Of a stretch of 64,000 nt of DNA, positions 6,707-58,539 are shown piece after piece. Every line of letters begins with the position of its first letter. The stretch's first letter is position 1. The DNA comes from Deltaproteobacteria bacterium. Its GTDB lineage: Bacteria; Desulfobacterota; GWC2-55-46. The position numbers and the translations under genes are program-made. The stretch lies in the NCBI GenBank assembly GCA_016234405.1, contig JACRCC010000048.1, positions 28,968 through 92,967 on the forward strand, given 5' to 3'. The notes beneath the pieces were generated by a model. It was not told the DNA's origin, did no database searches, and saw only the letters and a program-made list of their open reading frames with translations.

Positions 6707-7156
6707 TCAGGTATCCCGCGCCTTAACGACCTCGCGTATCGAGGTGAAGTATCCCCGCCTCCTCCTCACTAAATACTCCGCTACCGAAAATGCCCTCGCG
6801 TAAGGACGTCCCATATAACTCAGCTGCAGCTGGTCCAAGAGATGATGAAAGAGAAACCCCATCAGGACAAGATTGGCTTCGTCAAGATATAAGCCCGCGA
6901 CGTAGAGCACGGCGTAACACTCGAGCGTGTGAAATACGTTAAGACCTAAAAAGTTGTCGAGGTTATTTAAGAGCGTGTCGTGGTATTTGAAAAGGCCTCT
7001 TATGCTGACGCTTTTGGTATCGAGCCAGTACTCAATAAAATGGTCGAGGTCTATGGCAACCACCGCGGCGCCGAATATGAGGGCATTGAACCCGATAAAC
7101 GGATATAGCGCGGCCGCCCCTGCCGCAGCCTGCGCCGCGTGCGCCTCTGGTTTCAA
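6707..7156 (-). CDS. YdjM/DUF457-like membrane-bound putative hydrolase (paralog 2)
   Basis: Same DxDH / FKYHD / VFHTLE / GFLFHHLLD / RAFSVAEY motif set as 4646..5113. Stop overlaps the start of the upstream YfhO gene. Confidence 0.4.
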   Translation of the reverse strand: MKPEAHAAQAAAGAAALYPFIGFNALIFGAAVVAIDLDHFIEYWLDTKSVSIRGLFKYHDTLLNNLDNFLGLNVFHTLECYAVLYVAGLYLDEANLVLMGFLFHHLLDQLQLSYMGRPYARAFSVAEYLVRRRRGYFTSIREVVKARDT

Positions 7157-9612
7157 GCTGATTTTTCTCCCGCTCGTTTTTTGAAGGCTTCCACCGTTAT
7201 AACGCCAACGGAGACGGCCAAACCCAAGTAATACAACACAAGGGCCGTCATGTATAGCCGAGGTTCAAACGACATCACCACTGTATGCTCCCCCTTTTCG
7301 AGATAAACGGCCTTTCCGTTATAGTTGGCCGTTGCTATCGGCGTTTCATTACCGTTGACATAAGCCTTCCAGTGCCTGCTCCAGCCGTCGTTGTAGAGTA
7401 AATACCCTTGGGTCTTATTTTTGACCAAAACGGTAATGCCGTTCACGTTGAAATCTATCAGTTTCACGTCCCCGCCAAAAGCCTTGACGCCGCCAGCTAT
7501 GGAATCTTTCAATACCGCAAACGCCTTTACGTTACCTTCGCTGAATCTCTTCCAGTATTCGTCCACGGCGCTATTTTTTAACCATAAGACGTCCTCGAAC
7601 TTGCTTAAGTCACCTAATCCGGTCTCCGCTTGCCCCGACCCTTCTCTCCTCGCCTGTTTGCCGTCTTTTTCCACATACAAAAAACCGTCAAGCTCCTCAG
7701 GCGCGGCATGGCCTAACCGGTCGAGAAGAGAATTCCTGTCCTGTGCCACCCTCACCTTTGAGAGCGGGTAAAAACCGAGGATAGGCGACGTTACTCCGTT
7801 TAAGACGAATTGGTTGGCCAGAGGCGCGTTAGTAAGGAGGTCATAATATCTTTTGGTGGTGAATAACGAGTGGTTATAGCCTCTTGAGAGCGCGCCTTTG
7901 CGCATGGTCAAACTTTCTCCGAAGGCCACGTCGGGGAGCGAACCGTAAGGCGCCCTTAGATATTCAAATTCGTTTTTCCCCCCTTTCGGGCGCGCATCGT
8001 TAATGACGCCATAGAGGGTTGCCGAGTCTTTAAGGACGCTGCCTTTGATCGAATCGTTGTATAAATAAAGGTCGGTCAGGACAAGCGCCGCTATCACCGC
8101 AAAAAAAAACTTTTTGCCGAATAGACCGCGCGAGTAAATGGCCGCGGAGATAACAAAAAAAACGACGGCGAGCATCACGAGTTCGTCGGTTGAAGATTTG
8201 AAAACTGCCCGCTTGAAGAGATATGCCGTTAACCCGGCCTTCACGAATATCAGCGCAAGCCCGATAACTATTACCCCGTGATATTTCTCCTTGAAAAAAT
8301 CCTTATAACCGCACCCGTCAAAAATAAGCGACAGACCGAAACTCATGAGAAGACCCAAATACAAAAAGATGAAACTGTTAAGCGTCTCCCTCACCTCCAG
8401 CATCTTGAGCGGCGGGAAGACCGCGTTAAAGGCCTTTTGCGCGGCGTTGAAAGGTTTTGCGTCAACGCCTGAGCCGCTGAACATGTTCAATGACACGAGG
8501 ACGAGCATGAGGGCGCACACGAACCGCAGTCTTGATTTTGTATAGATAAGACCTATCACGGCCAAGATGAGCGGGACCATGCCGAAATATTGAAAGGTCT
8601 CGGATATCAGGTTCTCGTCCGAGAACCAATCGCCGGGGTTTGAAAACGACTTCCACATATCCTGATATAGAAGGCTCAGCGCGTTTCCGTATGAACTGAA
8701 AACCCCCCTTTGCCCGGTGAACTCCCCGGACAGGGATGCGCTGTTGATGCCGGAGGCCGCAATCTTCTTGAACTGGAGATTATTTTTTTGAATTATCCTC
8801 TGCATGGGAAAAAGCTCTCCGCCGCCGGATGCGTCAAAATACATAACGGCCGCGGGTGGAGCGGCCATTATCATCGTTATCACAACGCAACCAAGCACGA
8901 AGGTCAGAAGTTTTGTTGAGACAAGATTCTTTAAAACCCTCCTCATGTCTACAATCTTGAACAAAAACAGCCCTAACGCAAAAAAGACGATATTGAAGAG
9001 GTAAAACGACGGGATAAAAACGTTCATGGTGACGCCCGTTATCAGCGTAAACACGGCGAGGTGCAGATACCTGCGCCGAGTCTCGATGCATTCAAAAAAA
9101 AGCAGAAGAAAAAACATGGCTAAAGGCGTCAAAAAGACGTTGTCAATGACCCCCATCTGTCTCAGATAAGACGGCGTAACGGCAAGGAGGACGCCTCCGG
9201 CGGCAAGCGCAGCCGCAGACTTTTGTTTAGTCAGATGTTTGAAGAGAAGATACGCCCCGATGACGAAGATAAAGAGCCTGACAAGCCTGAAGTAGACGTA
9301 AGCGGTGAGCGCAGAGATACCGAAGACCTTTACCGAGAAGGCGCTTATAAGGACAACGGGGTCGAGAAGCCCCATGTGGGATATATTGGGGTAGAAGTAA
9401 GTGCCGGAAATCAGGTAGGGGTCCCAATAGGGGAATCTCAGATTACCGAGCGACTCTATGAAGTAGTGGAAGCTCCCATACCAGATTATCGAATCATGGA
9501 TGAATATCTCGCTGCAAATAAGCAGCTTATAGTAAAGAACGGCAAAAATAACCGCAACTGCCGCGCTGACGGCTATCATCGTGATGTCTCCTCTTGTGGA
9601 CATGCGCAGCAT
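7153..9612 (-). CDS. YfhO-family polytopic membrane protein (GT-C-like glycosyltransferase), paralog 1, no CBM insert
   Basis: 819 aa; many TM helices. Conserved N-terminal HDxxxWYGxFHYFxESL…PYWxPY and C-terminal GWxxHWKAYVNGxE…G(E)HTV plus a final TM, shared with the other two paralogs and typical of YfhO. Confidence 0.5.
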   Translation of the reverse strand: MLRMSTRGDITMIAVSAAVAVIFAVLYYKLLICSEIFIHDSIIWYGSFHYFIESLGNLRFPYWDPYLISGTYFYPNISHMGLLDPVVLISAFSVKVFGISALTAYVYFRLVRLFIFVIGAYLLFKHLTKQKSAAALAAGGVLLAVTPSYLRQMGVIDNVFLTPLAMFFLLLFFECIETRRRYLHLAVFTLITGVTMNVFIPSFYLFNIVFFALGLFLFKIVDMRRVLKNLVSTKLLTFVLGCVVITMIMAAPPAAVMYFDASGGGELFPMQRIIQKNNLQFKKIAASGINSASLSGEFTGQRGVFSSYGNALSLLYQDMWKSFSNPGDWFSDENLISETFQYFGMVPLILAVIGLIYTKSRLRFVCALMLVLVSLNMFSGSGVDAKPFNAAQKAFNAVFPPLKMLEVRETLNSFIFLYLGLLMSFGLSLIFDGCGYKDFFKEKYHGVIVIGLALIFVKAGLTAYLFKRAVFKSSTDELVMLAVVFFVISAAIYSRGLFGKKFFFAVIAALVLTDLYLYNDSIKGSVLKDSATLYGVINDARPKGGKNEFEYLRAPYGSLPDVAFGESLTMRKGALSRGYNHSLFTTKRYYDLLTNAPLANQFVLNGVTSPILGFYPLSKVRVAQDRNSLLDRLGHAAPEELDGFLYVEKDGKQARREGSGQAETGLGDLSKFEDVLWLKNSAVDEYWKRFSEGNVKAFAVLKDSIAGGVKAFGGDVKLIDFNVNGITVLVKNKTQGYLLYNDGWSRHWKAYVNGNETPIATANYNGKAVYLEKGEHTVVMSFEPRLYMTALVLYYLGLAVSVGVITVEAFKKRAGEKSA

Positions 9613-9615
9613 TAC

Positions 9616-10359
9616 TTAGCTCCCGGCGCAGCGCTTGACGATCCTCGAGACTAAAAAATCCGGTAAAAATCTCATTGTCTTGCTTATGAAGGCATTAAGA
9701 AACGGAAAGTCGAAGACGCCGTTTAAACCCGGCGACGCAAGACGCCTGACAATTTTTTGAGCGGCGCTTTTGTAATGGATTTTAAGAAGTCCTGTCCTTG
9801 ACTCGTCAGGCGACATTCCGCCTGGATTAACGGTTACAAAACGCACCTTCGACGGCGTCATCTGCAGTCTCATGCACTCAAACGTCATGCTGAGCGCGGC
9901 CTTACTGCCGCTGTAAGCTATTTTTTTGTTGTTTAATCCCCGATAAGATGAAAGCGATGATATGGCAACGAAAGTCCCTCCATCCCTCTCCACGAAGACC
10001 GGTAAAAAAAGGTCGAGCCACGCAACGGCCCCAAAGAGGTTTATCGCGTAGGTCTTCTTGAACACGTCATAAGAAAACGTCCCGTCAAGGTCGTTTTCCA
10101 TGACCCCGGCGTTTAATACCACAATATCCGGCACAAAACCCGCCTCCTTCATCTGCGCCCGCACGCGCTCGGCGTCGGCCATTACGGAGACATCGCAAAC
10201 GCTGAAACGGAAAGACCCGTTAGACGTTAAACGCCCATCATTGTCCCATGCCTCAATCTTCCTCCTCGCAACGCCCCAGACCTTATGCCGCTCCGTTAAA
10301 AACTCGTTTGTCAGCGCCCTTCCGAGACCCGACGATACGCCCGTTATAAACACGTTCAT
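9616..10359 (-). CDS. short-chain dehydrogenase/reductase (SDR)
   Basis: ITGVSSGLG (TGxxxGxG), NAG motif, catalytic YSGSK (YxxxK). 247 aa. Confidence 0.7.
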   Translation of the reverse strand: MNVFITGVSSGLGRALTNEFLTERHKVWGVARRKIEAWDNDGRLTSNGSFRFSVCDVSVMADAERVRAQMKEAGFVPDIVVLNAGVMENDLDGTFSYDVFKKTYAINLFGAVAWLDLFLPVFVERDGGTFVAISSLSSYRGLNNKKIAYSGSKAALSMTFECMRLQMTPSKVRFVTVNPGGMSPDESRTGLLKIHYKSAAQKIVRRLASPGLNGVFDFPFLNAFISKTMRFLPDFLVSRIVKRCAGS

Positions 10360-10373
10360 CCTTCACCATTCCT

Positions 10374-13340
10374 TTATTCTTTAGTTCCGTTATCCTTTTT
10401 TCTCGCTGATACTATGACCCCGTTTATGATAAACGCCGCTCCGAAGATGAGATTGGCTGCAACGTATATTTTAACGGCAAGAAGAAAAAACCAAGGGTTG
10501 TAGCGGAATATGACCGTGTGTTCGCCTTTCTTTAGAGGCACGGCCTTGAACGAGAGGTTTGCCCTGTGGAGTCCGTGCTTTATGCCGTCCACAAAGACCT
10601 CCCAGTGGCTGTCATAGATATCCCTGTAAAGGAGCACGCCGTCTTCGCGCCCCTCAACGTCGAGTTCGAGCCGCGTGGGGATGTAAGACCTGACGGCGTA
10701 TTTGAAAACACCGTCCTTTGGTTCGCCGTTAGGCGCGCCGCTCGCTGAGGGCACGGTAGTCAAAAGATGCGCAAAATCACCGTCTAATTCACCGGATACA
10801 AATACGGCATTATCGAGCGCCTTTGACAAGGCGGCCGGGTCGCGTGTCAGCATACCCCATCCTGACTGTTCGTCAATAAGGGTAAGGGATGCGTCATCGA
10901 ATACCGCAGGGGCGTCTGCGCGTGATGAGACGTTACAGGTTAAGTGCAAGACCTTCGCCCCTTTGCTTATTCTTGCGGACGCCGATATCTTTTGCCAGTC
11001 TCCGGTCTTTGAAAATGACGATATTGACGGCGGCCCAATGCCGTCTTGCAGGTCAATTTGCACCACGTCACGCTCGCCGTTGTTGCTTTTTACCCAAATT
11101 GAGAATACGGCGCGTTTTCCGGCGTCTCCTTTTTTCAGATTGACGCTTTGCCGGAGCATTGAATTGCCTTCCGACGACGGCGCCACCATCGCTCCAATCT
11201 TGCCTTTTAAATGCGCGATTTTTTCCATCCGCACCGAACCGTTTTTGCCGCCCTGTGTGTAGTCCCATGATGACGGACGTTGAGACGCGCCGTCCACCCA
11301 TGTCTCGAATGAGCCGTTTAAAACGGTCTTTTCGTATCCCCCCGCCGATGGAGCGGGGGGATATTCTATGACTCCGCTTTTGAACGTCTGAAACTGCGCA
11401 GGCACAGCCATCATAACCGCCTTCGTAAAATAGGCGATCAAGGGCGCTTGAATACCGGCGAGCTTTTTGAAAATCGGGGTGTTCTCCTCAGCCACCTCGT
11501 AAAGAATAAAATACGGTTTCAGCCAAAAATGATAAAGGCCCTGCGAAAAATTCATCTTGAAGTCCGCCGTTATATTCGTGGGCTGGCCGTTTCTCTTGGA
11601 CGGGATGAGGTCGTCAAATGAAGCGTTCACCTTGAGGATTGTCGGACTGTAGGCAAGATACGTTTTTTTAAGGTTAAGCCCCGCCACCCTCTCCGTAGAC
11701 AGCGTCCATGATTCGGATGCGTTTTTACCGAACTGAAATCCCGAAAAATATTCGTCGCGGTTTTGTTTGAAATGGTGTCCGTCCTCGCCGTGATAATCGC
11801 ATATAACGATAGTTTCCAAAATGATCAGCATCATCATAACTGACAAAAGCACGCCGGACTTTACCGCAGGTTTGAAGAATTGAAAGAAGAGAAAGATACC
11901 CGCGAGGGAAAAAACCAAAACCGCGATGAACCAATCCCTTGAAAATGTTAGAAAGAAATGATTGAAAAAATTGGCGTTCATGACGACGAAGTAGAAAAAA
12001 CACCCTGCGACGGCGACTATCGAAAGGTCAACAAAGACGCCTCTCAGACTTATGCGTCCACCATCAACCGGCAATGGAACGAACTGTGATTTTCCCGCGG
12101 TTTCAGATTTTAAAAGATATTCGAGCATTGCGTCCGCGCCGAGTCCGATGAAAAATATACCCGCAAAAAAAACAAAAGGCTCAAACATGCTAAAGTGTCT
12201 TACGAGCCATAACGGCGGGAATGAGAAGTAGAGTATCTGATGGAGAAGACGTATATCTTTTAAAGGGCCGATATACAATATATACATGACCACGGTTAGG
12301 GCGGCGAAATTCCATTTGAACCTATGAACTCCAAACAACAACCCTATGACAAAAAGTATCCGAGCCGCCCAGCTTATCTCAGGATATTCGTAGTGCCTTC
12401 CGTAAGGCAAAAAACCGAGCAGATAATCGGGATTGCCTACGCCGATTTGCGGGTCTCTTTTCTTCATCATCTCGTAATCAACCCCGAGGATGCCGGCGAT
12501 TCCCTGCGTCTTCTTCTCCACGCGTGAATAATCCCTTGCTATCGGGACTATATTGGCCCTCTCCGGCATAAGGGACAATATCGGGAGCGAGAGCGCGGCT
12601 AAAAGCGCCGCGCTGATTATTACGACCCTCTTATCCTGCGTGAAGACGTTGCGCAGTTCCTTTCTCTGCCTGAGGACCAGGGTAATGAGGAAGACCGCGA
12701 TGAAATAGAACGGCAGCGCCCAATGATAGGTGGATGCGCCGAAGACAACGCCGCAAAGGTAGGCGAAGGCCATCACGTCATACTTGCTTGACCTGTCAAG
12801 CATCCGCATGAGGAAATACATCATCCATGGCAGCCAAGAAAAAACGTCAATATTGCCGACGGAAAGAAGCGTTGACTCGGCCAGCAAAAGGCATACAACC
12901 ATAACCACAAAGAGGCTGAGAAACCTCTTGAAGATGCGCCTGTAGAACAGATATATCCCCGCAAGGGTCACGACGATGCGGATTATGTAATTGTAATGAT
13001 AGAGGTCGAAAAGCGGCGGGTTGAAAAATTTTGCAATCACGATGACCGAGAGCGTAACGGGGTCAAGAAGGCGCAGTATCCCCCACGCGTAATAAAACGG
13101 CTCCCCGCCGTGCACATACGGATTCCATGTCGGCAAAAAACCGCTCCACAGCGATTCAACGAAGTAGTGGAACATGCCGTACCAGAGGATGCCGTCGTGC
13201 ACGTAGGTGCTTTTGCCGAGCATGATGCTCCGTTCCATGTAAAGGTAAAGGGCAAGCAAAATCCCGATAAAAAAAAGCTCTCTCTTGACGCTTTTCGAAT
13301 CACACGCGCCTGAGAAAAACCAATTCAAAAATTGAGTCAT
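10374..13340 (-). CDS. YfhO-family membrane protein, paralog 2, with CBM4/9-like beta-sandwich insert in the extracytoplasmic region
   Basis: 988 aa; same N- and C-terminal YfhO signatures. Internal NGSFETW…SSEGNSMLRQ…VQIDLQDG segment resembles CBM_4_9 carbohydrate-binding modules. Confidence 0.5.
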   Translation of the reverse strand: MTQFLNWFFSGACDSKSVKRELFFIGILLALYLYMERSIMLGKSTYVHDGILWYGMFHYFVESLWSGFLPTWNPYVHGGEPFYYAWGILRLLDPVTLSVIVIAKFFNPPLFDLYHYNYIIRIVVTLAGIYLFYRRIFKRFLSLFVVMVVCLLLAESTLLSVGNIDVFSWLPWMMYFLMRMLDRSSKYDVMAFAYLCGVVFGASTYHWALPFYFIAVFLITLVLRQRKELRNVFTQDKRVVIISAALLAALSLPILSLMPERANIVPIARDYSRVEKKTQGIAGILGVDYEMMKKRDPQIGVGNPDYLLGFLPYGRHYEYPEISWAARILFVIGLLFGVHRFKWNFAALTVVMYILYIGPLKDIRLLHQILYFSFPPLWLVRHFSMFEPFVFFAGIFFIGLGADAMLEYLLKSETAGKSQFVPLPVDGGRISLRGVFVDLSIVAVAGCFFYFVVMNANFFNHFFLTFSRDWFIAVLVFSLAGIFLFFQFFKPAVKSGVLLSVMMMLIILETIVICDYHGEDGHHFKQNRDEYFSGFQFGKNASESWTLSTERVAGLNLKKTYLAYSPTILKVNASFDDLIPSKRNGQPTNITADFKMNFSQGLYHFWLKPYFILYEVAEENTPIFKKLAGIQAPLIAYFTKAVMMAVPAQFQTFKSGVIEYPPAPSAGGYEKTVLNGSFETWVDGASQRPSSWDYTQGGKNGSVRMEKIAHLKGKIGAMVAPSSEGNSMLRQSVNLKKGDAGKRAVFSIWVKSNNGERDVVQIDLQDGIGPPSISSFSKTGDWQKISASARISKGAKVLHLTCNVSSRADAPAVFDDASLTLIDEQSGWGMLTRDPAALSKALDNAVFVSGELDGDFAHLLTTVPSASGAPNGEPKDGVFKYAVRSYIPTRLELDVEGREDGVLLYRDIYDSHWEVFVDGIKHGLHRANLSFKAVPLKKGEHTVIFRYNPWFFLLAVKIYVAANLIFGAAFIINGVIVSARKKDNGTKE

Positions 13341-13347
13341 AATTTCT

Positions 13348-13896
13348 CTATTTCACCTCCCATTCAGCTATGGATGTGTGGTTTTTATCCGACACGGTCT
13401 TCAATATCCTCAGTCTGTAATGGGAATACTTATCCGTTTGTTTGAGCGAATACGTATTTTTAACGGCGTCCCACTTTTGTCCTTTTTTTTCTTCGATGGT
13501 CTTCCAATCGGCGTCAGAACTTGGAAGATTGTCGGAGGCTGCGCCCTCAAGGATAAAATCAACCGGCGCTTGAGTAGCTGTTATCTCGGAACGCCGCGTT
13601 ATGGCGTAACCGGAGGCCGCGAACGGTTTTGAGAATGACATCGAAATCCAGCCGTAGTCGCCGGCAGGGCCTCCTGAATGCCAGAACGTCTTGGCGTCAT
13701 TGTCGTAAAACTTCAAGGGGTTTAACGACTCCGAATATATGCTCTTTGCCCCCAACACGACGTCTCCAGACTTTTCGAATACCGGGGACTTTGTTTGAGT
13801 CTTGACGGAAGAGGCGGTTTCACTTGAATCGCATGACATGCAAACCGCCAAAATCAAAATTGAAATTGCCGCAGTGAACAGGTCTTTTTTCATCAC
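13348..13896 (-). CDS. secreted/lipoprotein with F5/8 type C (discoidin)-like domain
   Basis: Signal peptide with Cys (ILAVCMSC). …KTFWHSGGPAGDYGWISMSF…VDFILEGAASDNL…WKTI… matches the discoidin-domain pattern. Confidence 0.45.
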   Translation of the reverse strand: MMKKDLFTAAISILILAVCMSCDSSETASSVKTQTKSPVFEKSGDVVLGAKSIYSESLNPLKFYDNDAKTFWHSGGPAGDYGWISMSFSKPFAASGYAITRRSEITATQAPVDFILEGAASDNLPSSDADWKTIEEKKGQKWDAVKNTYSLKQTDKYSHYRLRILKTVSDKNHTSIAEWEVK

Positions 13897-13910
13897 ATCC
13901 CTCCTTGTGT

Positions 13911-15047
13911 TTAGATATGGAATACCTCTTGAAGCTGTCTTTTGACGATGTATACGAGCTGTCTTGCCGAAAGTCCGAGCAAGAGATTGTAGTCGTTATT
14001 ACTCAGATGCGGGCATGCCACGCATCTGTTGGTTTTTCTCACGTGTTCAATGGCCTTTGCAACGCCCACCTCCTTTAAGTTGAGCGCCTTGAATTCCTCG
14101 TTCAAGGGAAAACACGGATAGACATAACCGTTAGCCTCCACCACGAACTTCGACCGCCCGTAATAGCATCTGATAGGCTCGAAACCAACCGGAAGCTCTT
14201 GGGGGGTCGCATGGTGTTTTACGTTGTAATCGAATGGCCAGCTCATCGAGTAGTTAAGGCATCTGTCCGAGGTGAAGATGGGATAGCCCTGATTTTTGAA
14301 ATACAGTATCTTGGAGAGAGATTCCCTTATCTCCTCCTGACTCATCCCCATGTCAAGAGCCTTTTTCAGAGGCTTGTAAAGTATGCTGAAGTAGAGCTGG
14401 AACTTATGCTCCTTTGCAAGTTTTGCGAGGAATTCTATGTCGTGCATGGTGTTGCGCGTGAGCGTAGCCGATACGCGCAAACGAAATTTTTCTTTTGACG
14501 CAAGTTTGATGGCGTCTACGGCGGCCTTGAAAGACCCCGTACCCCTGTTGAGATCGTTGCCCGCTTCATTGCCGTCAAGGCTTATGCAGAGGCTGTCAAC
14601 GTTCCTGACCACGTCAAGATTTTGCGCCAACAAAATTCCGTTCGTGATGAAGCCGACGTAGATACCCTTCCTTTTGATGTAATCAACGATATAACCGACG
14701 TCCTTCCTGAGAAGCGTCTCCCCGCCGTGGACCACCATGTATCTCGTCCCTAAGGCGTAGAGATCGTCTATGACCTTGACGAGTTCCTCGGTCGTATAAT
14801 CCTTGTCGCGTCTATTGCCGTAGTCGCCGAAACAGTAATGGCAATCGAGATTGCACCTGTTGTTCACGACAAGCACGACGGAAATCGGCTCGCTCTTCCC
14901 AAGGGCTTTATTGCGGACTATCCTATACGGGAATACGAGTCTCTGACGTATTGTAGACAGGGCCTTGTTCCAATGTTTTTTGTCAGTTTTCAGTTCTTTT
15001 GAAATCATACGCGGCCCCCTTGGACTTTGTGTTTTCAACGGAAACAT
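13911..15047 (-). CDS. radical SAM enzyme with C-terminal SPASM/twitch-like Cys-rich domain (peptide/protein-modifying maturase class; anSME-like). True start possibly at 15008
   Basis: CNLDCHYCF (CxxxCxxC) radical SAM cluster motif. C-terminal …CYYGRSKFVVEANGYVYPCFPL…NRCVACPHL fits auxiliary Fe-S (SPASM) cysteine patterns. Confidence 0.65.
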   Translation of the reverse strand: MFPLKTQSPRGPRMISKELKTDKKHWNKALSTIRQRLVFPYRIVRNKALGKSEPISVVLVVNNRCNLDCHYCFGDYGNRRDKDYTTEELVKVIDDLYALGTRYMVVHGGETLLRKDVGYIVDYIKRKGIYVGFITNGILLAQNLDVVRNVDSLCISLDGNEAGNDLNRGTGSFKAAVDAIKLASKEKFRLRVSATLTRNTMHDIEFLAKLAKEHKFQLYFSILYKPLKKALDMGMSQEEIRESLSKILYFKNQGYPIFTSDRCLNYSMSWPFDYNVKHHATPQELPVGFEPIRCYYGRSKFVVEANGYVYPCFPLNEEFKALNLKEVGVAKAIEHVRKTNRCVACPHLSNNDYNLLLGLSARQLVYIVKRQLQEVFHI

Positions 15048-15771
15048 TGTATAGACTGAGAAGTTCGGCTATCTCCTTTTCGGTAAGCGGGTTTGTCCAC
15101 ACGGCAACCTCGTCAATGCCCCCCCTGTAATATCTCGCGTCGCTGGAAGTGAATTTTCCGAAGGTCATCGGCGCGGGGTTGAATTTAAAGGTTTTGTAAT
15201 TTGCGGTCGCCCGCGACTTTCTGCCGTTCACGTAAGCGCTCATGCTTTTATTCTTTTTGTCTATGATGAGAATGACGTGAGACCATTTTTCGCGCGGCAC
15301 GTTGACAATTACGACGTTTCCGCTCGAATACCACGCAAACTTCTCCGCCTTCCTGTCGGTTGATTGGAATACCATGTTGCTTGCCTCGTCATGGTCCGTA
15401 TCGAAGACTATGCAGTTCGAATCCATTTCACACTCTTCGGGTTTCATCCACAATGAAACGGTAACCCCGGATTCAAAACTCGCGGTATTGACGAGGGTAT
15501 CTATATGCGAATCCCTGCCGTTGAAATGCGCGGCCTTTCCCGAAACCCCCTCAACCTGTTCCGTCCGGTACGTCCTCATGCTGTTTATCCCCTTGGAGTC
15601 GGTGAACAGGTCTCCCTGATTCGCATCCATGTCCCAATGCGCCAACGCCTTCGACAGGATATTTTTTTGTTCTTTCTTCGGTTGGCCGGTCTCTGCCGCA
15701 TAACATTGACCGGTCGAAAAAACAGAAACTGCCGCGAAAAGCACGGCGATAAAAAAACCTTTAACTTTCAT
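14983..15771 (-). CDS. secreted LamG-like (concanavalin-type jelly-roll) domain protein
   Basis: Signal peptide MKVKGFFIAVLFAAVSVFSTGQCYA. C-terminal GGIDEVAVWTNPLTEKEIAELL is the hallmark Laminin_G_3 motif. The 3' end overlaps the radical SAM gene start. Confidence 0.55.
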   Translation of the reverse strand: MKVKGFFIAVLFAAVSVFSTGQCYAAETGQPKKEQKNILSKALAHWDMDANQGDLFTDSKGINSMRTYRTEQVEGVSGKAAHFNGRDSHIDTLVNTASFESGVTVSLWMKPEECEMDSNCIVFDTDHDEASNMVFQSTDRKAEKFAWYSSGNVVIVNVPREKWSHVILIIDKKNKSMSAYVNGRKSRATANYKTFKFNPAPMTFGKFTSSDARYYRGGIDEVAVWTNPLTEKEIAELLSLYNVSVENTKSKGAAYDFKRTEN

Positions 15772-18700
15772 CTTTCTCCCTCCTTTCCGTCGTCTGTGCG
15801 GTCTGTCCGGTTATTACGTTTGTCATGAAGAAACAAGAACGCAGCGGCAAAAACACTCATTGAAAAAACCGAGTAAAAAACAGACAAGGCCGCTTTGAAG
15901 AGCGCAGGCTCAAAAACGAATGTTATCTCGTTTGTGCCCTTTATCAGCGGGATGGCCTTGAAATTGACGTTTGCCCTGTAGATACCGGTCTCTACCCCGT
16001 TTACATAAGCCTTCCATGATTTATCAAAACCGTCCGACCAATAAAGGAAACCGTCCTCGTCGGACACGGCAGTAATCCGGATAGAGTTGTAATCGTAGTC
16101 ATGCACCGTGTATCTGAATGGATTTTTTAGGGGGCCGCCGCTTGGGACAACCGCCGGCTGCCCCCCGCCGGCCTCTTGCGAGAGTATGACGGTATCCTCT
16201 AAAAATCTGACGCCTTCCTCTGGCGTCATTTTTGCGAAGAAATTCCGCAAGCCATCATCTCCAACCCTGCGCGCATGTCTCTTGAACTGGAACTGCGGCT
16301 CGCCTATCGCAAAGGTTTTTTCAATGACCTGATGAGGCGCCCCTGAGTGTATGAGTTTGTAATAATTGCTCGTCAAAAGAAAACTGCTCCATCTTTTCAT
16401 TCTCAAACCGTACTCAAATGTCTTTTCCCTGAGCGGTATGTATTGAATTGCCGCGTCTTTGAATATTGCATCAGACCTTGCCTCCGACTTCACGTTCAGG
16501 GTAAAAAAAACGGCATCAACGCCGCCATCAATGTGTTTTTCCACGGTCAGGGTTTCCCACTCGCCGGAATTGCCGTATGAAACGGTTTTAACCGGCAAGA
16601 CGCCGTCCTGAACGTCTATCTGGACGCCGCCCGGCGCCTGTGACATGCTCTTGGCCTTTACGGAAAACCAGACATACGCGTCCTTTACCGAACCGGATGA
16701 ACTTCTGAACTGAACGAGCGAATTACCCTCGGACGAAGGGCTGATACTCATGATGACTGAGCCGTCGGACATTTTTTTTTCTTTAAACTCTCCGCCGTCG
16801 CCGTCCTGGCTGTATGTTAAAGGCAGGTCGAAAAACTTCTTAGACGCCGACGTTTTAACCAGCGTAATTTTCTTGCCGGTGTAGTCTATCGGTTCATCGG
16901 GCATGACCGTTGAAAGGGCATCCGCCTTGCGATGCAGTACCGACAGATACCTCATTGACTGTTCCCCTTGCAACTGAGACGGCTCAATGTAAACCGACCG
17001 CTGCCAAAACCAATCAGGTCTTTGCGGCGTGGTTCGCACCTTGTAGGCGCCGCCGGGGTGTTTTGCGGACTCATAAAGAAATGATGTCTTTCTCAGGCTG
17101 AACGTGAGGTCGAGGAGCAGGCATATATAAAATATGACAAGCGCGAGGGCAAAAAAATATCCGTTAAAGAGACCTTTAGAGGACGATCTTTTGTTGATAA
17201 TTTTCAATATCAAAAAAACCGTAATAGGGATGAGGAGCGATACCGCCATGTACTTCAGGAATTTATGGGCGTTGTTTGAAAAGACTAAAACGGCTGCGAC
17301 GTGCAGGACAACCGCTCCCGCGTAAAGCCGCTTGGAGCCGATCGTTTTCCACAACAGCAGAAAAGTCAGAATACCCAAAGGAATAAAGACGGATAGATAC
17401 TCGCTTACAAATTTAGCGAGTTCCTTCACGGCCGTATATCCGAACATCATGTATGCAGCGGCCCCTAACGCTAAGACTACGACGGCGGAGGGCGCCGCAT
17501 ATTTCTTGAGGTCAACTTCGGTTTTACCGGGAAAGATATCCGTTTCCCATGTCTTGAAAAGGTGATTGAGCCCGATTACATAAAAGAAAAGAAGGGAGAA
17601 TATGAAGAAAAGCACGAAGGTGTGCGTGTGCCTCACGAACCACATCGGAGGATAGACGTAATAAAGCGCCTTGTGCAGACCGCCTGCGGGCCCGAGCATA
17701 AGAAGCGCGGTCGCGGCAAGGACAAATAACCATACTCGCTTGAGTTCATGAGTCCCTGCTATGACGCCGATGAGGGAAATCGCCCACGGCAGAAAACCGA
17801 GATACATGTAGGCCTCTGACGGTTTCCCCCACAAACTCCGATTAGGCCACCGTATGTGGTCATTTCCGTCAGGCGCTATCAGCTGTATGAAGTCGCTGAT
17901 ATGAGAAAACGTCCCGGTGTGAGCAATGAGTTTATAGGGCATGATTATGCCGGAAACCGGCAACGAAGACGGCCCTGACTCATACTGGACAGGGCCTCCG
18001 AGAGGCGGCTTATTTTCATACGCGTCATCCACCATCCGCGCAGGAAAGACGAATTTGCCCTTTTCGGCGAACAAAACGACGTCGGGCGCGGCCATCATGA
18101 CGACTATCAATAAGGCTGCGCCTGCCCTAAGAACCGATGGCCGCGTATTCCGGAAGTCCCGCAAAAGGTCAATCCTAAAGATGCAAACCCCGGCAACGAA
18201 AAAAAGGGAAAAAATCCATGCCCCCGTAAAGAAGTACGACTGCCAGTTGAGACCGGTCACCGCGCCGAGCATAAGATAGTTGTGCCAACTGTGGTCTTTC
18301 TCCCAGATGATGTTGAGGAAGAAGTATGTGATGTACGGGACCCAGATGAACTGGTTGAGTATCGCATCCTGCCTAAAAGAACCTAGCATAAAAGAGGAAA
18401 AAAGGAGTATGGGGATGATGCTCGCGCGCGTAAAGACGTTTAGCGCAAAACGTCTCAACACGATATGAACGCCAAACGCCGTTACAAGCAGCTCGATAAA
18501 CCTATTCCAGTTAAAGAGCATAACGATGTCGTTTGTCACAAACCTGCCGAGCAAAATCGTCAGCCATGCGGCCGGCTCATAAAACCTTAACTGTGCGAGC
18601 GCCGGATAGAAAGGCTCGCCGCCGTGACTGAACGGATTCCAGTAAGGCAGCCTCAAACTCATGAGGTTTTCGGCAAAAAATTGATATATCGGGTAATTCC

Positions 18701-18872
18701 AGTAGAGGTTGTCGTGGATGAGGGTTGTCTCTCCGGTGATGAGCATCTTCCTTAGCGTATAGACGAGAAAGAGGGTCGAGACCGCCGCCGCGCACAACTC
18801 TATTGTGAGCGTATGCCTGTCAAATATCTTGCTGAGTTTATTGCCGGAATCCATCATGGGTGATTTTGGCAA
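15768..18872 (-). CDS. YfhO-family membrane protein, paralog 3, with CBM4/9-like insert
   Basis: 1034 aa; HDNLYWNYPIYQFFAENL…PYWNPFSHGGEPFY N-terminal signature and GFDKSWKAYVNGVE C-terminal signature. Internal SPSSEGNSLVQF…VQIDVQDG is homologous to the paralog-2 insert. Confidence 0.5.
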   Translation of the reverse strand: MPKSPMMDSGNKLSKIFDRHTLTIELCAAAVSTLFLVYTLRKMLITGETTLIHDNLYWNYPIYQFFAENLMSLRLPYWNPFSHGGEPFYPALAQLRFYEPAAWLTILLGRFVTNDIVMLFNWNRFIELLVTAFGVHIVLRRFALNVFTRASIIPILLFSSFMLGSFRQDAILNQFIWVPYITYFFLNIIWEKDHSWHNYLMLGAVTGLNWQSYFFTGAWIFSLFFVAGVCIFRIDLLRDFRNTRPSVLRAGAALLIVVMMAAPDVVLFAEKGKFVFPARMVDDAYENKPPLGGPVQYESGPSSLPVSGIIMPYKLIAHTGTFSHISDFIQLIAPDGNDHIRWPNRSLWGKPSEAYMYLGFLPWAISLIGVIAGTHELKRVWLFVLAATALLMLGPAGGLHKALYYVYPPMWFVRHTHTFVLFFIFSLLFFYVIGLNHLFKTWETDIFPGKTEVDLKKYAAPSAVVVLALGAAAYMMFGYTAVKELAKFVSEYLSVFIPLGILTFLLLWKTIGSKRLYAGAVVLHVAAVLVFSNNAHKFLKYMAVSLLIPITVFLILKIINKRSSSKGLFNGYFFALALVIFYICLLLDLTFSLRKTSFLYESAKHPGGAYKVRTTPQRPDWFWQRSVYIEPSQLQGEQSMRYLSVLHRKADALSTVMPDEPIDYTGKKITLVKTSASKKFFDLPLTYSQDGDGGEFKEKKMSDGSVIMSISPSSEGNSLVQFRSSSGSVKDAYVWFSVKAKSMSQAPGGVQIDVQDGVLPVKTVSYGNSGEWETLTVEKHIDGGVDAVFFTLNVKSEARSDAIFKDAAIQYIPLREKTFEYGLRMKRWSSFLLTSNYYKLIHSGAPHQVIEKTFAIGEPQFQFKRHARRVGDDGLRNFFAKMTPEEGVRFLEDTVILSQEAGGGQPAVVPSGGPLKNPFRYTVHDYDYNSIRITAVSDEDGFLYWSDGFDKSWKAYVNGVETGIYRANVNFKAIPLIKGTNEITFVFEPALFKAALSVFYSVFSMSVFAAAFLFLHDKRNNRTDRTDDGKEGER

Positions 18873-18884
18873 GCCTTCGAGTTC

Positions 18885-20456
18885 TTATTGCCTAATCCCT
18901 TTGAAAAAGAACTTGCGGCACATGGAACTCGCAATGAGGTAATAAAACACCCTAAAAAAAACAGTGCCGCCCAAGAGGGTAAGCTCGATGAGCGTCTTCA
19001 ACGACTTCATGTCTTTGTTTGAGACCTCGAACCATTTGCCGCTCCCGCTCTGCTTAGGGTTGAAAAGATTTTTCAGATTGGTCCAATTCAGGTAAAAAAG
19101 GAGATTCGCAAGGAGCACCGTGCCCTCGAGTTCTTTATCCGTAGACCCCTCAGGCACATAAGGCAACGGAGACCTTTTAAAAAGCCCGCCGGTGACAGCC
19201 CCGGCTGAGCTGAAGTTCGCCCACATCGGCTCGACCTTCAATCTATCCCTGACCATTTCATACATGGCGGTGCCGGGATACGGGGTGGCGTTATTGAAGC
19301 GTGCCCTGTCCAGACCGATTTCTTGCGCCAACCTCAGCGCCTTGAGCCTGTCATCGAAAGTTTCGGTGGGAAAACCGAATATAAACGTCGCTTCAACCGC
19401 AAAACCCATGTCCTTCCCGAGCCTTATTGCGTCTACGTTCTCTTTGACCGTTTCTTTTTTGTTGATGAGCAGCATGAGATTTTCGGAGGCGGTCTCGACG
19501 CCGAACATAAGGCTTCCGAAGTTGGCCTCCCGCATCGCCTTCATCAAAGGACGGTCTATGCTGTCGCCGCGCGTCTGAACCCCGAAAGACGCCTTCTTGT
19601 GAAAACCCCTCTTTTTTATAAGCTCGCACAGTTCAAACACGCGCTCCCTGTTCCCGGTAAAATAGTCGTCAAAGAAAGTAATGTTTGGCTGTTTGAGCGT
19701 GTTGATGAGGTAGTCGAGCTCCGCGATGACCCTTTCCGAGGAAATATATCTATACCTTCTTTTGGTTATGACCCTCTGAGAGCAGAATATGCAATCAAAA
19801 GGGCATCCCCTCGACGTCAGGATGAAGCCGAGGTTATAACGGGTCGGGTCGTACATGTCGTACGGGAATATCGGCACGTCGTCTACGTTTACGGTCCTCT
19901 CAGACGGTTTCGCATAGACGATGCGACCGTCGGCCGGTTCGATAAAGCCGATGTTCTCAAGCCTGTCTTTATCTATGTTCCCGCCCTTTATCTGATTAAG
20001 AAGTTCGAGGAAGGTATACTCGCCCTCGCCCTTTACGACGAAATCCACGCAGCCGCTTCGCAACACCTCATCAGGCATGACCGTTGCGTGAATGCCGCCG
20101 AAGACAATGACGGCGTCTTTGTCAACCGATTTAACGAGCCTTGCTATCCTATACCCGCTCGCGACATTAGCGGTCATCACGCTTATGCCTACGACCCGCG
20201 GGCGATTGCAGCCGTTGAGTATCTCCGTGATACTTGCCCTGTCAAGGTCTACAAGCTCATTGTCTACAATCCTTACGGAGTGTCCTTTTGACCTTAAAAA
20301 GCCGGCAAGGATGCCTATACCTATCGGAACGCTTCTCGGCACGAACCTCTTGAACCTCCCAAGCTGCTCGTTGAACGGCGACACGAGGACGACGTCGTGC
20401 ATTAAATCCTCCATTGCAGGATTAATAAACGCATTCATGATGAACGCGCAAGTCAA
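18885..20456 (-). CDS. cobalamin(B12)-binding-domain radical SAM protein (class B radical SAM, methyltransferase-like)
   Basis: N-terminal B12-binding-like Rossmann segment (VVGISVMTANVASGY…VIVFGGIHAT) followed by TSRGCPFDCIFCSQ (CxxxCxxC). Confidence 0.65.
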   Translation of the reverse strand: MTCAFIMNAFINPAMEDLMHDVVLVSPFNEQLGRFKRFVPRSVPIGIGILAGFLRSKGHSVRIVDNELVDLDRASITEILNGCNRPRVVGISVMTANVASGYRIARLVKSVDKDAVIVFGGIHATVMPDEVLRSGCVDFVVKGEGEYTFLELLNQIKGGNIDKDRLENIGFIEPADGRIVYAKPSERTVNVDDVPIFPYDMYDPTRYNLGFILTSRGCPFDCIFCSQRVITKRRYRYISSERVIAELDYLINTLKQPNITFFDDYFTGNRERVFELCELIKKRGFHKKASFGVQTRGDSIDRPLMKAMREANFGSLMFGVETASENLMLLINKKETVKENVDAIRLGKDMGFAVEATFIFGFPTETFDDRLKALRLAQEIGLDRARFNNATPYPGTAMYEMVRDRLKVEPMWANFSSAGAVTGGLFKRSPLPYVPEGSTDKELEGTVLLANLLFYLNWTNLKNLFNPKQSGSGKWFEVSNKDMKSLKTLIELTLLGGTVFFRVFYYLIASSMCRKFFFKGIRQ

Positions 20457-46219: not shown

Positions 46220-47530
46220 TCATTTCTTCGCCGTCCTCCCGACGCAGACGTAGTCAAAGCCGGATTCCAACATGAGCGCCGGGTCGTAGATATTGCGGAG
46301 ATCAATCACCTTATGGGCTTTGAGGAGCCCCTTTATCCTCTCCATGTCGAGTTTCCTGAACTGGTTCCATTCGGTGAGCACAACGAGGGCGTCGCTGCCT
46401 TGGGCGGCCTCGTATTCGTCGTTGCAGTATACGACCTCCGGCAACACGGCCTTCGTATTCTCCATGCCCGCAGGGTCATACGCCCTTATCTTCGCCCCCT
46501 CCTTGATGAGCATCCTCAAGATGTCTGTGGCCGGAGAATCCCTGATGTCGTCCGTGTTGGGCTTGAATGTGAGGCCGAGGGCCGCGACGGTCTTTCCGCG
46601 AACCGGGCCCATCACGGCGTGTATCTTGTCGAGCATGATTTCCCTCTGACAACGGTTGACCTCTATGACGGACTCTACGATCTTAAAGGTGTATCCGCTT
46701 TGCTTGGCTATCCGCGTTACGGCGGAGGTGTCCTTTGGGAAGCACGACCCGCCATAGCCCGGCCCCGGATGCAGGAACTTTGGCCCTATCCTCTTGTCAA
46801 GGCCCATGCCCTTTGCCACCATGTGCACGTCGGCGCCGACCCTGTCGCAGATGTTGGCCATTTCGTTTATAAAGGAAATCTTCGTGGCGAGAAATGCGTT
46901 AGAAGCATATTTTATAAGCTCGGCGGTTTCGATGTCCGTAATCACAAAAGGCGTCTCGATGAGATACAGCGGCGAATAGAGGTCTTTCATGATGGCAACG
47001 GCCTCGGCGCTCCGGGCGCCGATGACGACTCTATTCGGCCTCATGAAGTCCTCGATGGCCGAGCCTTCCCTCAGAAACTCCGGGTTGGAAGCGACGTCGA
47101 ACTTGTGCGAACCTGGCTGCTCCCTTTCTATTATCTTTTCAATAAGCGCGCCGGTGCCGACCGGCACCGTGCTCTTGGTGACTATGACCTTGTAGCCGTT
47201 AAGGTTAGCCGCGATGGTCTTTGCGACCTCCTCCACGTAGACGAGGTCCGCGCTTCCGTCCTCTTTCGGAGGCGTGCCCACGGCGATGAATATCACAAGG
47301 GATTTTCTTATGGCGTCTGCGAGGCCGGTCGTGAACGTGAGCCTCTTTTCATGGACGTTTTTGTCAACGAGTTCCTTGATGCCCGGCTCATAGATGGGCA
47401 TCTCGCCGCGGTTTAACATCGCAATCTTTGCCGAATCCTTGTCAACGCACGCGACGTTGACGCCGAAGTCCGCAAAACACGTGCCCGTAACAAGACCGAC
47501 GTACCCGCTTCCTATAACGCAAATATTCAT
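46220..47530 (-). CDS. ugd: UDP-glucose 6-dehydrogenase (nucleotide-sugar dehydrogenase family)
   Basis: N-terminal MNICVIGSGYVGLVTG Rossmann, catalytic GGSCFPKD, central and C-terminal UDPG_MGDP_dh domains. Confidence 0.8.
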   Translation of the reverse strand: MNICVIGSGYVGLVTGTCFADFGVNVACVDKDSAKIAMLNRGEMPIYEPGIKELVDKNVHEKRLTFTTGLADAIRKSLVIFIAVGTPPKEDGSADLVYVEEVAKTIAANLNGYKVIVTKSTVPVGTGALIEKIIEREQPGSHKFDVASNPEFLREGSAIEDFMRPNRVVIGARSAEAVAIMKDLYSPLYLIETPFVITDIETAELIKYASNAFLATKISFINEMANICDRVGADVHMVAKGMGLDKRIGPKFLHPGPGYGGSCFPKDTSAVTRIAKQSGYTFKIVESVIEVNRCQREIMLDKIHAVMGPVRGKTVAALGLTFKPNTDDIRDSPATDILRMLIKEGAKIRAYDPAGMENTKAVLPEVVYCNDEYEAAQGSDALVVLTEWNQFRKLDMERIKGLLKAHKVIDLRNIYDPALMLESGFDYVCVGRTAKK

Positions 47531-48687
47531 GAACCCGACCCCTTAAAATCCGTAGACCTCAACAAGCCCTTCATCCGCTCGAAACACTCCCACGCGTTTA
47601 TGTCCATGCAAGCCATGCCCGCGCACCCGTCTTTCAATGAGCACGGGGCGCACGAAAGGTCTTTTTTGACTATTGCAACCCTCTCTCCGACAGGCCGCCA
47701 CTTGACCGGGTCGTTAATGCCGCACCAGACTACAACCGTAGAAATACCGAATGAAGCCGCAAGGTGCGCGGGCAGGGAATCGAGACCGGCAAAGGCCGTT
47801 GCCCCCTTCAAGGCTGCGGCAAACACGTCAAAAGGTATCAAAGAGTCTATTTTAATGCAACCATTTAAATCGCCGCACACAGGGTCATATACAAAGACTT
47901 TATATCCCAAATTTGCGGCCATTGAATTTATCAGCGTCTGCCAACCCTCTTTTTTCCAATATTTTTTCGGATTCCCTGCGCCCGTATGGATTAAAATATA
48001 CGGGACGTTATCGCTTACGCCAAGCCCCTTTTTCATCGAGGCCCACTTCGAGGACGCCGCTTTACTCACGCTAAAAGAAGGTTTTAAATCTTTTTCCGAA
48101 ACCTTCACGCCGACTGCATTCAGCGCGTCCGCAAGATGGGCAGATTCGTGGACGCCTTCCCTGTACGGCGCGACCGCGTCGAGGAGAAAACCAAAACCGC
48201 CCGTGGAAAATCCGGCGATATTTTTGCACCCGCCGAGATACGCGAGCACAATCCCGTTGAAGGGATACGCCCGCAGCATGAGACAAAGGTCATAAGGGTC
48301 TTTTCTTATCTCCCTTACGGCTTTTAAAAAACCAAATATCGCAACAGAGAGGTTTTTGAATACGCCCGGACGCCTGTTGTGCTTGAAGGCGTCATATACG
48401 ATAACCCTATCTATATAAGGGTTGTCCTTGAGACATACGCACGACCAACTCGCCGCCATGAAGTCAATCCGCGCTTGGGGATATGCCTTTTTAAGATGCG
48501 GCAAAACCGAACTTGCGAGAAACACGTCGCCTAAATGGTCTATGCGCGAGACGAGGATCTTTTTTACGTCCTCGGAGCGTCTTCCGGAGGGTTTTAAAAA
48601 AACGTATCCGATGGAATCAACAAGCCCCTGCAAAAACGCCATGTAGGGTTTTTGGTAAAGATACGGTCTGCCGAATGAATGCCTCAT
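47527..48687 (-). CDS. glycosyltransferase family 9 (heptosyltransferase-like); start taken at MRHSF (48687)
   Basis: KKILVSRIDHLGDVFLASSVLPHLKKAYPQARIDFMA… resembles the GT9 N-terminus (IRLSSLGDV…). Confidence 0.55.
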   Translation of the reverse strand: MRHSFGRPYLYQKPYMAFLQGLVDSIGYVFLKPSGRRSEDVKKILVSRIDHLGDVFLASSVLPHLKKAYPQARIDFMAASWSCVCLKDNPYIDRVIVYDAFKHNRRPGVFKNLSVAIFGFLKAVREIRKDPYDLCLMLRAYPFNGIVLAYLGGCKNIAGFSTGGFGFLLDAVAPYREGVHESAHLADALNAVGVKVSEKDLKPSFSVSKAASSKWASMKKGLGVSDNVPYILIHTGAGNPKKYWKKEGWQTLINSMAANLGYKVFVYDPVCGDLNGCIKIDSLIPFDVFAAALKGATAFAGLDSLPAHLAASFGISTVVVWCGINDPVKWRPVGERVAIVKKDLSCAPCSLKDGCAGMACMDINAWECFERMKGLLRSTDFKGSGS

Positions 48688-49427
48688 TGTTTGAGTTTTC
48701 CGATGACTCCGACAAAAAGACCGTTGGCCGATGTGGCCGCATAGTCGTATTCTGACGCGCCTATGATATCCTCTGCGGCCTGAACCCACTTGCATGGACC
48801 CGCCTTCCTGAGGCAAAATCTGTCGTCAAAGGCGAGTCTGCCGGACTTCAATAAAGAATCCATATTTGGATTGTAGCCGAGAGGGAGGGTAGAGACAAGA
48901 ACCCCGCCCGGCGCGAGCATTGACTTTAGGTTTTCGAGGGCGCGCACTATCTTTTCCGGGTCTTTCGGCGTCTCGTCAAAACCCACGTGCTCGATGGTCG
49001 AGATGCTGACGATGAGGTCGTACTTGCCGGGCGGTTTGAACTCTACCACGTCTACATTTTTTACCCCCGCGCCCTTTTCGTACTTGTCTATCACGTCGTG
49101 CGGGAAATTAAAATAATGACTGAGGACGTTGCCCACCTCGAGTATCCGTTTGCCGGAGCGCTTCTCAACCTCGGCCATGACTATAGGAACTTCTATTGCG
49201 CGTTCATTCTTCCACGTTGTGCAGTACCTGTGATAAAAATAATCATACTGTCTGTTGTCAAACGCGAATCGCCCCTTTTTGAAGACCGTGAAATAAAAAT
49301 ATACGACTGAACCGTCGGCAAGGTAGGCGAGTTTTCGCAAAAAAGCGCCGGCAAACCCAAGCGCGCCCTTTTCCCTGAATACCGAAACCGTCTTGCCTAT
49401 CAGAGCCATATCCAAATTAAAATCCAA
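48684..49427 (-). CDS. class I SAM-dependent methyltransferase
   Basis: Motif I ILEVGN, motif II DLIVSISTIEH, motif III LAPGGVLVSTLP. Confidence 0.5.
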   Translation of the reverse strand: MDFNLDMALIGKTVSVFREKGALGFAGAFLRKLAYLADGSVVYFYFTVFKKGRFAFDNRQYDYFYHRYCTTWKNERAIEVPIVMAEVEKRSGKRILEVGNVLSHYFNFPHDVIDKYEKGAGVKNVDVVEFKPPGKYDLIVSISTIEHVGFDETPKDPEKIVRALENLKSMLAPGGVLVSTLPLGYNPNMDSLLKSGRLAFDDRFCLRKAGPCKWVQAAEDIIGASEYDYAATSANGLFVGVIGKLKQ

Positions 49428-49448
49428 TCTTTTGAATAACAGAAAAAA

Positions 49449-55050: not shown

Positions 55051-55051
55051 G

Positions 55052-58535: not shown

Positions 58536-58539
58536 GGTC

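Follow-up and report, generated by a model that had tools for sequence, protein, structure and literature searches.

A CBM4/22-like module as an optional accessory of YfhO-like, putative GT-C glycosyltransferases in an uncultured deltaproteobacterium

Two of three YfhO-like membrane proteins encoded in a 64-kb stretch of DNA from an uncultured deltaproteobacterium (contig JACRCC010000048.1; the whole stretch is called the window below) carry a module that is predicted to fold as do family 4, 9 and 22 carbohydrate-binding modules (CBMs). The three proteins, which we number paralogs 1, 2 and 3, have 819, 988 and 1034 residues, respectively, and are 20-28% identical to each other in pairwise alignments; the module is present in paralogs 2 and 3. 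Its fold and its distant homology, as a divergent relative of the CBM4/CBM9/CBM22 group, are well supported because profile matches and a high-confidence structural model point the same way. Within the distant YfhO-like branch to which these proteins belong, the module is an optional cassette and not a defining region of YfhO. We hold with moderate confidence that the best explanation for its presence in paralogs 2 and 3 is that of a tether for an acceptor glycan.

A preliminary description of this DNA, made from its letters, had proposed that a segment of ~150 residues is shared by paralogs 2 and 3 and is absent from paralog 1. Indeed, a three-way alignment opens a gap in paralog 1 at this position, and a comparison by hhalign of the module profile with paralog 1 gives no match. 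The spacing between the conserved mid domain and the C-terminal beta-sandwich is ~78 residues in paralog 1, versus 217 and 264 residues in the long paralogs. The motifs quoted in that description are all found in the translations, specifically NGSFETW, SSEGNSMLRQ, VQIDLQDG and VFDDASLTLID in paralog 2, and SSEGNSLVQF, VQIDVQDG and IFKDAAIQYIP in paralog 3. Between the two modules, identity is 32% over 130 residues (E 6e-20), and a hidden Markov model (HMM) of the module finds the paralog 3 entry in the database, P0018, with an E value of 1.6e-46. The segment had also been said to begin with an NGxFE motif, which is true of paralog 2 (NGSFE) but not of paralog 3, where the motif is degenerate (KKFFD) and the first-strand region is ~10 residues shorter. 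Conservation among modules is strongest at PSSxGNS, KSxN, NSGxWE and ATAxxYFD, which occupy alternate hairpin loops that probably lie at one end of the sandwich. The conserved aromatic residues are the W after NGSFE, the Y in YxQ, and those in WVKS and YxNSGxW.

The Pfam CBM_4_9 profile (PF02018) aligns to the paralog 2 module alone over profile positions 3-131 of 136 with a score of 20.0 bits (E 9e-4), and to the whole of paralog 2 with an E value of 0.034. This match is below threshold, yet a profile built from 11 modules finds CBM4-2 of the T. maritima laminarinase Lam16A (1gui) with an E value of 8.2e-5 over positions 2-147 of 154. The match of the same profile to the CBM22 of Xyn10B (2w5f) is weak (E 0.16). 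AlphaFold2, given the module alignment, produces an all-beta structure of 11 strands with a mean predicted local distance difference test score (pLDDT) of 90.4 and a predicted template modelling score (pTM) of 0.85. The model has the beta-jelly-roll (galactose-binding-domain-like) fold that characterizes the CBM4-CBM9-CBM22 group, and thus the beta-sandwich that had been expected from the sequence is predicted. Its closest structural neighbours are overwhelmingly sugar binders, and from the fold it is plausible that the module binds carbohydrate. The status of a CBM family in CAZy requires demonstrated carbohydrate binding, and we describe the module as a distinct, uncharacterised subfamily of the CBM4/22-like fold. 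It is set apart from the CBM4/CBM9/CBM22 group by its sub-threshold Pfam match, by the lack of conservation of the 1gui tryptophans that were checked, and by a signature of its own (PSSxGNS, WVKSxN, VQxDxQ and YxNSGxWE). It also differs from CBM4, CBM9, CBM22, CBM16 and CBM61 modules in that its host is not a glycoside hydrolase but a glycosyltransferase-like membrane protein.

The optional nature of the module is best demonstrated by its distribution across relatives of the host proteins. An exhaustive profile search yielded 382 cluster representatives at E <= 1e-30. The module HMM was searched against 243 fetched proteins, the membrane, mid and C-terminal domains were located in each, and copy numbers were counted in the 187 that are near-complete. 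No module is present in 120 of these proteins, in which a median of 236 residues separates the membrane domain from the C-terminal sandwich. One module is present in 60 proteins (median 402 residues) and two are present in seven (median 570 residues), such that each copy lengthens the ectodomain by ~166 residues. The mid domain precedes the module and the sandwich follows it in 64 of 65 cases. Tandem arrangements, with two full copies between these domains, occur in relatives of paralog 3 (P0035, P0084, P0226, P0027, P0028, P0042 and P0051). Two further relatives of paralog 3 have a discoidin (F5/8 type C) domain in the slot of the module (residues 804-930 of P0078 and 811-927 of P0087), whereas P0113 carries a discoidin domain at its N-terminus instead. 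The module is cleanly deleted from P0007 when this protein is compared with its close relative P0003. Eight module-less relatives with equally long ectodomains hold no insert that Pfam recognises, and the module profile has no hhalign match in P0016, a module-less YfhO-family protein.

Mapping presence or absence onto a neighbour-joining tree of the membrane domain, rooted at its midpoint, requires 15 changes or more, versus ~48 when the states are shuffled, and the inferred root state is absence. The clade of paralog 2 bears the module in 12 of its 13 proteins, paralog 3 belongs to a small positive clade among negatives, and the clade of paralog 1 is entirely negative. The membrane domains of clades that share the conserved module motifs are only ~22% identical. 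Nowhere along its 835 positions does the Pfam YfhO model match the module, and most members of this branch are without it (120 of 187, as above); therefore it is an optional, exchangeable accessory here, and not a defining region of YfhO. The earlier term 'insert' is apt in that the module is optional in this branch, but not in that it is intrinsic to the subfamily of paralog 2. Overall, the module has undergone 15 or more events of gain, loss, duplication or replacement.

These data also bear on the notion that the module is an ancestral segment of the ectodomain that was lost in paralog 1 and is irrelevant to substrate recognition, such that no function would be implied. Such a history would agree with the parallel divergence of module and host (32% identity between modules versus 21-28% overall), with the almost uniform presence of the module in the paralog 2 clade, and with clean losses such as that in P0007. 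It is difficult to reconcile with a root state of absence, with the number of changes on the tree, and with the nesting of module-bearing clades among module-less ones. Moreover, tandem duplication and discoidin replacement argue for selection on the slot, and the module is highly conserved where it is present. We consider this history to be very improbable.

Beyond these relatives, a search of a word-indexed protein database with the module profile returned one fragment only. A scan of a genome collection with a tighter module alignment found only three loci, in metagenome-assembled genomes (MAGs) of Nitrospirae, Gammaproteobacteria and Woesearchaeota, so that species-representative genomes rarely contain the module, at least as far as the one peptide pattern employed is sensitive enough to show. 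In a Candidatus Woesearchaeota MAG (JADHVE010000022.1, positions 181-561), a module-bearing gene fragment sits at the end of a contig, and it is either genuinely archaeal or the result of faulty binning.

The host proteins have the architecture of large GT-C enzymes. A full-length model of paralog 2 computed from a 60-sequence alignment (pLDDT 79, pTM 0.79) yields, in order, a membrane domain, an alpha/beta domain, the module at high confidence, a helical linker, a beta-sandwich and a final helix. The N-terminal block of paralogs 2 and 3 contains roughly 13 membrane helices. Hydropathy and the model delimit the soluble region of paralog 2 as residues 519-949, within which the match to the conserved mid-domain HMM covers residues 582-658. 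Directly after the first helix, all three paralogs share a conserved H48-D49, with no variation at D49 across 60 sequences. The position after the first helix is the usual place of the GT-C catalytic acid, and from the alignment D49 is a candidate catalytic Asp. The large region between the last two helices would face outward, into the periplasm. The module had been expected in an outward-facing loop, and its site between the last two membrane helices fits the topology published for B. subtilis YfhO, which has 13 helices and a 389-residue loop between the last two (PMC5836110).

The YfhO label given to these proteins in the preliminary description is based on the C-terminus, the rest of each protein being unmatched. 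The Pfam YfhO profile (PF09586) scores 29.0 and 31.2 bits in the long paralogs and 25.9 bits in the short one, which is under the cut-off of 28.5. In each case the match is limited to the last 70-77 residues (profile positions 756-834 of 835; residues 886-956 of paralog 2). These borderline, C-terminal-only matches indicate that the paralogs are distant YfhO-like proteins and not close family members, and several homologs are named 'YfhO family protein' at NCBI. The Firmicute YfhO proteins, which are teichoic-acid GlcNAc transferases of B. subtilis, S. aureus and L. monocytogenes, share with the paralogs the overall topology of ~13 helices, a large loop and a final helix, as well as the C-terminal sandwich and helix covered by the Pfam match. 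They differ from the paralogs in that their sequence resemblance is confined to this end, at scores that are at or just under the cut-off, and in that Firmicute YfhO pairs with a csbB-like GT2 and a GtrA flippase, neither of which adjoins the paralogs here. The host organism presumably is without teichoic acids, as we assume for Gram-negative envelopes in general. For Firmicute YfhO, the evidence for glycosyl transfer from a lipid-linked donor is genetic (PMC5836110), and extracellular carbohydrate-binding domains have been proposed in large GT-C enzymes, including S. aureus YfhO (reviewed in PMC8035078). Our literature search that combined YfhO with carbohydrate binding and the C-terminal domain retrieved nothing relevant.

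The only whole-chain matches to the full-length model in the PDB are AftD (6w98) and EmbC (7bve), both of which are mycobacterial arabinofuranosyltransferases of the GT-C type with CBMs, although the agreement is loose (TM-score of 0.36, with normalisation to the query). AftD proceeds from a membrane domain through a soluble GT-C domain, CBMs and a structural beta-sandwich to membrane re-entry, and the CBMs of AftD and the Emb proteins are thought to hold the complex glycan acceptor (bioRxiv 10.1101/2019.12.22.885152). As in AftD and EmbA/B/C, the paralogs here would join a polytopic GT-C domain to a periplasmic soluble domain, CBM-like module, structural sandwich and membrane re-entry, and as with AftD/Emb, several paralogs are encoded together. 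The full-length model shows the features of the AftD/Emb type, namely a GT-C core, a soluble domain and a beta-sandwich CBM at the outer face. There is no detectable sequence homology between the two groups, and the likeness is one of architectural class and not of homologous family. The three CBMs of AftD and its additional C-terminal membrane helices contrast with one module and a single terminal helix here; also, AftD and the Emb proteins are mycobacterial, whereas the present host is a Gram-negative-type, uncultured deltaproteobacterium. Because GT-C enzymes with accessory CBMs are already known (AftD and EmbA/B/C), the proteins described here appear to be of the same kind, in a different and poorly studied GT-C branch.

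We hypothesize that the module binds a polymeric glycan acceptor and would keep it near the active site at the membrane surface, in the manner thought for the CBMs of AftD and EmbC. This acceptor tether is favoured because the fold neighbours are of the lectin type, the copy number is variable, and a lectin-type domain replaces the module in the same slot. The periplasmic location, the glycosyltransferase activity, the binding of sugar and the nature of the acceptor are parts of this proposal that we infer. If it is correct, then paralog 1, without the module, may serve another acceptor or another stage, or may use an acceptor-binding protein that is supplied separately. The gene context also speaks for the tether, in that a secreted LamG protein and a lipoprotein with a weak likeness to discoidin are products of the same operon and the related Nitrospirae locus holds sugar-metabolism genes (see below). 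The LamG protein and the lipoprotein might supply acceptor binding separately for paralog 1.

Several observations weigh against an acceptor tether. The CBM_4_9 score of the paralog 2 module is less than the gathering cut-off of 25.9 bits, so that the curated threshold does not place it in the family, and this profile matches only three of the 11 modules at E < 1 and does not match that of paralog 3. W59 and W100 of 1gui (chain numbering), which we take to serve in its glucan binding, align to module positions that are non-aromatic or variable. The glycosyltransferase activity of this branch, which is suggested by analogy, leans on the Firmicute YfhO literature. When PDB sequences were searched with a profile of the whole protein, 1gui was the only relative to emerge, for the module, and the membrane domain had none; moreover, there is no CsbB-like GT2 or GtrA-type flippase gene among the eight genes of 7153-20456 or in their flanks. 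The jelly-roll fold is found as well in non-lectins, such as HpiC1 cyclases, Cry/Vip toxins and MAM/ephrin-receptor domains. Finally, polar loop motifs that are common to deeply diverged clades fit an interface that docks onto the enzyme core as well as they fit a ligand site; they could reflect either a common ligand feature or such docking.

The conserved polar loops, the non-conserved 1gui tryptophans and the non-sugar roles of the fold would also suit a structural or protein-interaction domain, which might serve as a spacer or docking platform, in oligomerisation, or in binding a partner such as the LamG protein or the lipoprotein. AftD offers a precedent, in that it has a purely structural beta-sandwich and one of its CBMs was judged to be a poor sugar binder. 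Regardless, the module is dispensable, occurs in zero, one or two copies, and can be replaced in its slot by a discoidin domain, which is of a bona fide lectin type; these properties suit an accessory for ligand recognition better than an element of the structural core. The preponderance of sugar binders among the nearest fold neighbours argues in the same direction, and the LamG protein and lipoprotein are not conserved in the related loci examined. On balance, we regard a structural or protein-interaction role as unlikely.

The three paralogs are encoded within a run of eight closely packed minus-strand genes, which was delimited from the list of open reading frames (ORFs) in the window and spans positions 7153-20456 (Table 1). 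Paralog 2 is a 100% match to HY884_05500, a hypothetical protein of a deltaproteobacterial MAG at NCBI. The ORF of paralog 3 starts at TTG, and the identical database protein P0018 (1029 residues) begins five residues later; the true start is probably the Met of MMDSGNK, at nucleotide 18857. The radical SAM/SPASM ORF overlaps the LamG ORF by 65 nucleotides, and so its start may be later than listed. The putative lipoprotein has a hydrophobic N-terminal segment that ends in LAVCMSC. Small ORFs of 160-180 residues beside homologs at other loci were considered as its kin and were rejected at 11-16% identity. A 210-residue ORF on the plus strand (922-1554), a few kilobases from the cluster, is another concanavalin-like protein, with a match to SO2946-like_C (E 3.9e-11) and a weak match to Laminin_G_3.

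Table 1. Positions of the genes and protein regions discussed (coordinates of the window unless a locus is named)
Feature	Positions	Strand	Basis
Paralog 1, 819 residues, YfhO-like, without module	7153-9612	minus	three-way alignment, hhalign, domain spacing
Short-chain dehydrogenase/reductase, 247 residues	9616-10359	minus	domain matches
Paralog 2, 988 residues, YfhO-like putative GT-C glycosyltransferase, one module	10374-13340	minus	ORF, translation, Pfam
Paralog 2, last membrane helix (residues 950-984), then Lys/Arg-rich tail	10389-10493	minus	hydropathy, model
Paralog 2, C-terminal beta-sandwich (residues 879-947), Pfam YfhO part	10500-10706	minus	Pfam, model
Paralog 2, module, predicted CBM4/22-like beta-jelly-roll (residues 671-822)	10875-11330	minus	profile, fold model, translation
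Paralog 2, mid ectodomain of alpha/beta type (residues 519-670), in part at low confidence	11331-11786	minus	secondary structure, pLDDT
Paralog 2, membrane domain (residues 1-518)	11787-13340	minus	hydropathy, model helices
Putative lipoprotein, 182 residues, weak discoidin-like match	13348-13896	minus	Pfam F5_F8_type_C E 0.006, below threshold
Radical SAM/SPASM gene	13911-15047	minus	domain matches
Laminin_G_3 (concanavalin-like) secreted protein, 262 residues	14983-15771	minus	Pfam E 2.8e-19; hydrophobic signal-like N-terminus
Paralog 3, 1034 residues, YfhO-like, one module	15768-18872	minus	ORF, translation, Pfam
Paralog 3, module (residues ~678-818)	16419-16841	minus	homology to paralog 2 module
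B12-binding radical SAM gene, first of the eight-gene run	18885-20456	minus	domain match
Related loci with YfhO-like arrays	L001 81-15996; L002 216-15815; L003 145-9188		

Arrays of three to five YfhO-like paralogs adjoin B12-radical SAM and radical SAM/SPASM genes in unrelated MAG contigs as well. At L001, in another MAG, orthologs of the B12-radical SAM (38%) and radical SAM/SPASM (46%) proteins of the window are encoded directly upstream of P0008, an ortholog of paralog 2, and four more large membrane-protein genes follow. At the Nitrospirae locus L003, a module-bearing homolog is accompanied by a GT2, a split transketolase and a TIM barrel that resembles sugar isomerases, together with two radical SAM/SPASM genes. 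At a third locus, a pair of B12-radical SAM genes and a pair of methyltransferases occur with at least four YfhO-like genes, of which one encodes two modules in tandem. Nothing relevant was retrieved by a literature search that combined YfhO with radical SAM. This pairing of a YfhO-like array with radical SAM genes is a more unusual feature than the module itself.

Given such neighbours, the module might recognise an acceptor other than carbohydrate, such as a peptide or protein matured by the radical SAM/SPASM enzymes, with the paralogs acting as protein or peptide glycosyltransferases of the PMT or PglB type. The radical SAM/SPASM and B12-radical SAM genes are conserved neighbours, and peptide maturases are among the best NCBIfam matches of the SPASM enzyme, all of these matches scoring far below their cut-offs. 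However, B12-radical SAM and SPASM enzymes also modify sugars, as in AprD4-like and BtrN-like examples, the Nitrospirae locus holds the sugar-metabolism genes listed above, and the fold neighbours of the module are binders of polysaccharides. A peptide acceptor therefore has only a slight chance of being correct, and a glycan remains our preferred acceptor for the tether.

A broader hypothesis is that the eight-gene run is one instance of a conserved, undescribed assembly line for a periplasmic glycan in uncultured Deltaproteobacteria, Nitrospirae and related lineages, analogous to arabinan synthesis in mycobacteria. In this scheme, C-methylation or some other radical reaction carried out by the radical SAM enzymes would, for instance, tailor an unusual sugar. 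A polyprenyl-phosphate carrier would deliver this sugar, and the array of GT-C paralogs would add it stepwise. The swappable modules (one or two CBM4-like copies, a discoidin domain, or none) would then set the stage of the polymer that each paralog recognises. We consider the complete scheme to be quite improbable and offer it as speculation.

A separate polysaccharide-type cluster is located on the minus strand at 46220-61090. It encodes a UDP-glucose/GDP-mannose dehydrogenase, a GT9-like and a GT4 protein, three methyltransferases and a MurJ-like flippase, and it also holds two large ORFs without a Pfam match (52251-53909 and 53896-55050). This cluster could be a supplier or a recipient of glycans relevant to the YfhO-like enzymes.

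To our knowledge, YfhO-type enzymes outside Firmicutes have no known substrates. A swappable, confidently folded module of the lectin type is a handle for finding them, since it can be expressed alone to capture the acceptor glycan. Likewise, the presence, absence and copy number of the module provide a testable rule for the division of work among GT-C paralogs. If the tether is correct, then the principle seen in AftD and the Emb proteins, in which polymer-acting GT-C enzymes carry CBMs, would extend to a GT-C family that is unrelated to them, in Gram-negative lineages that are uncultured. The pairing with radical SAM genes, in turn, hints at an uncharacterised envelope glycan pathway.

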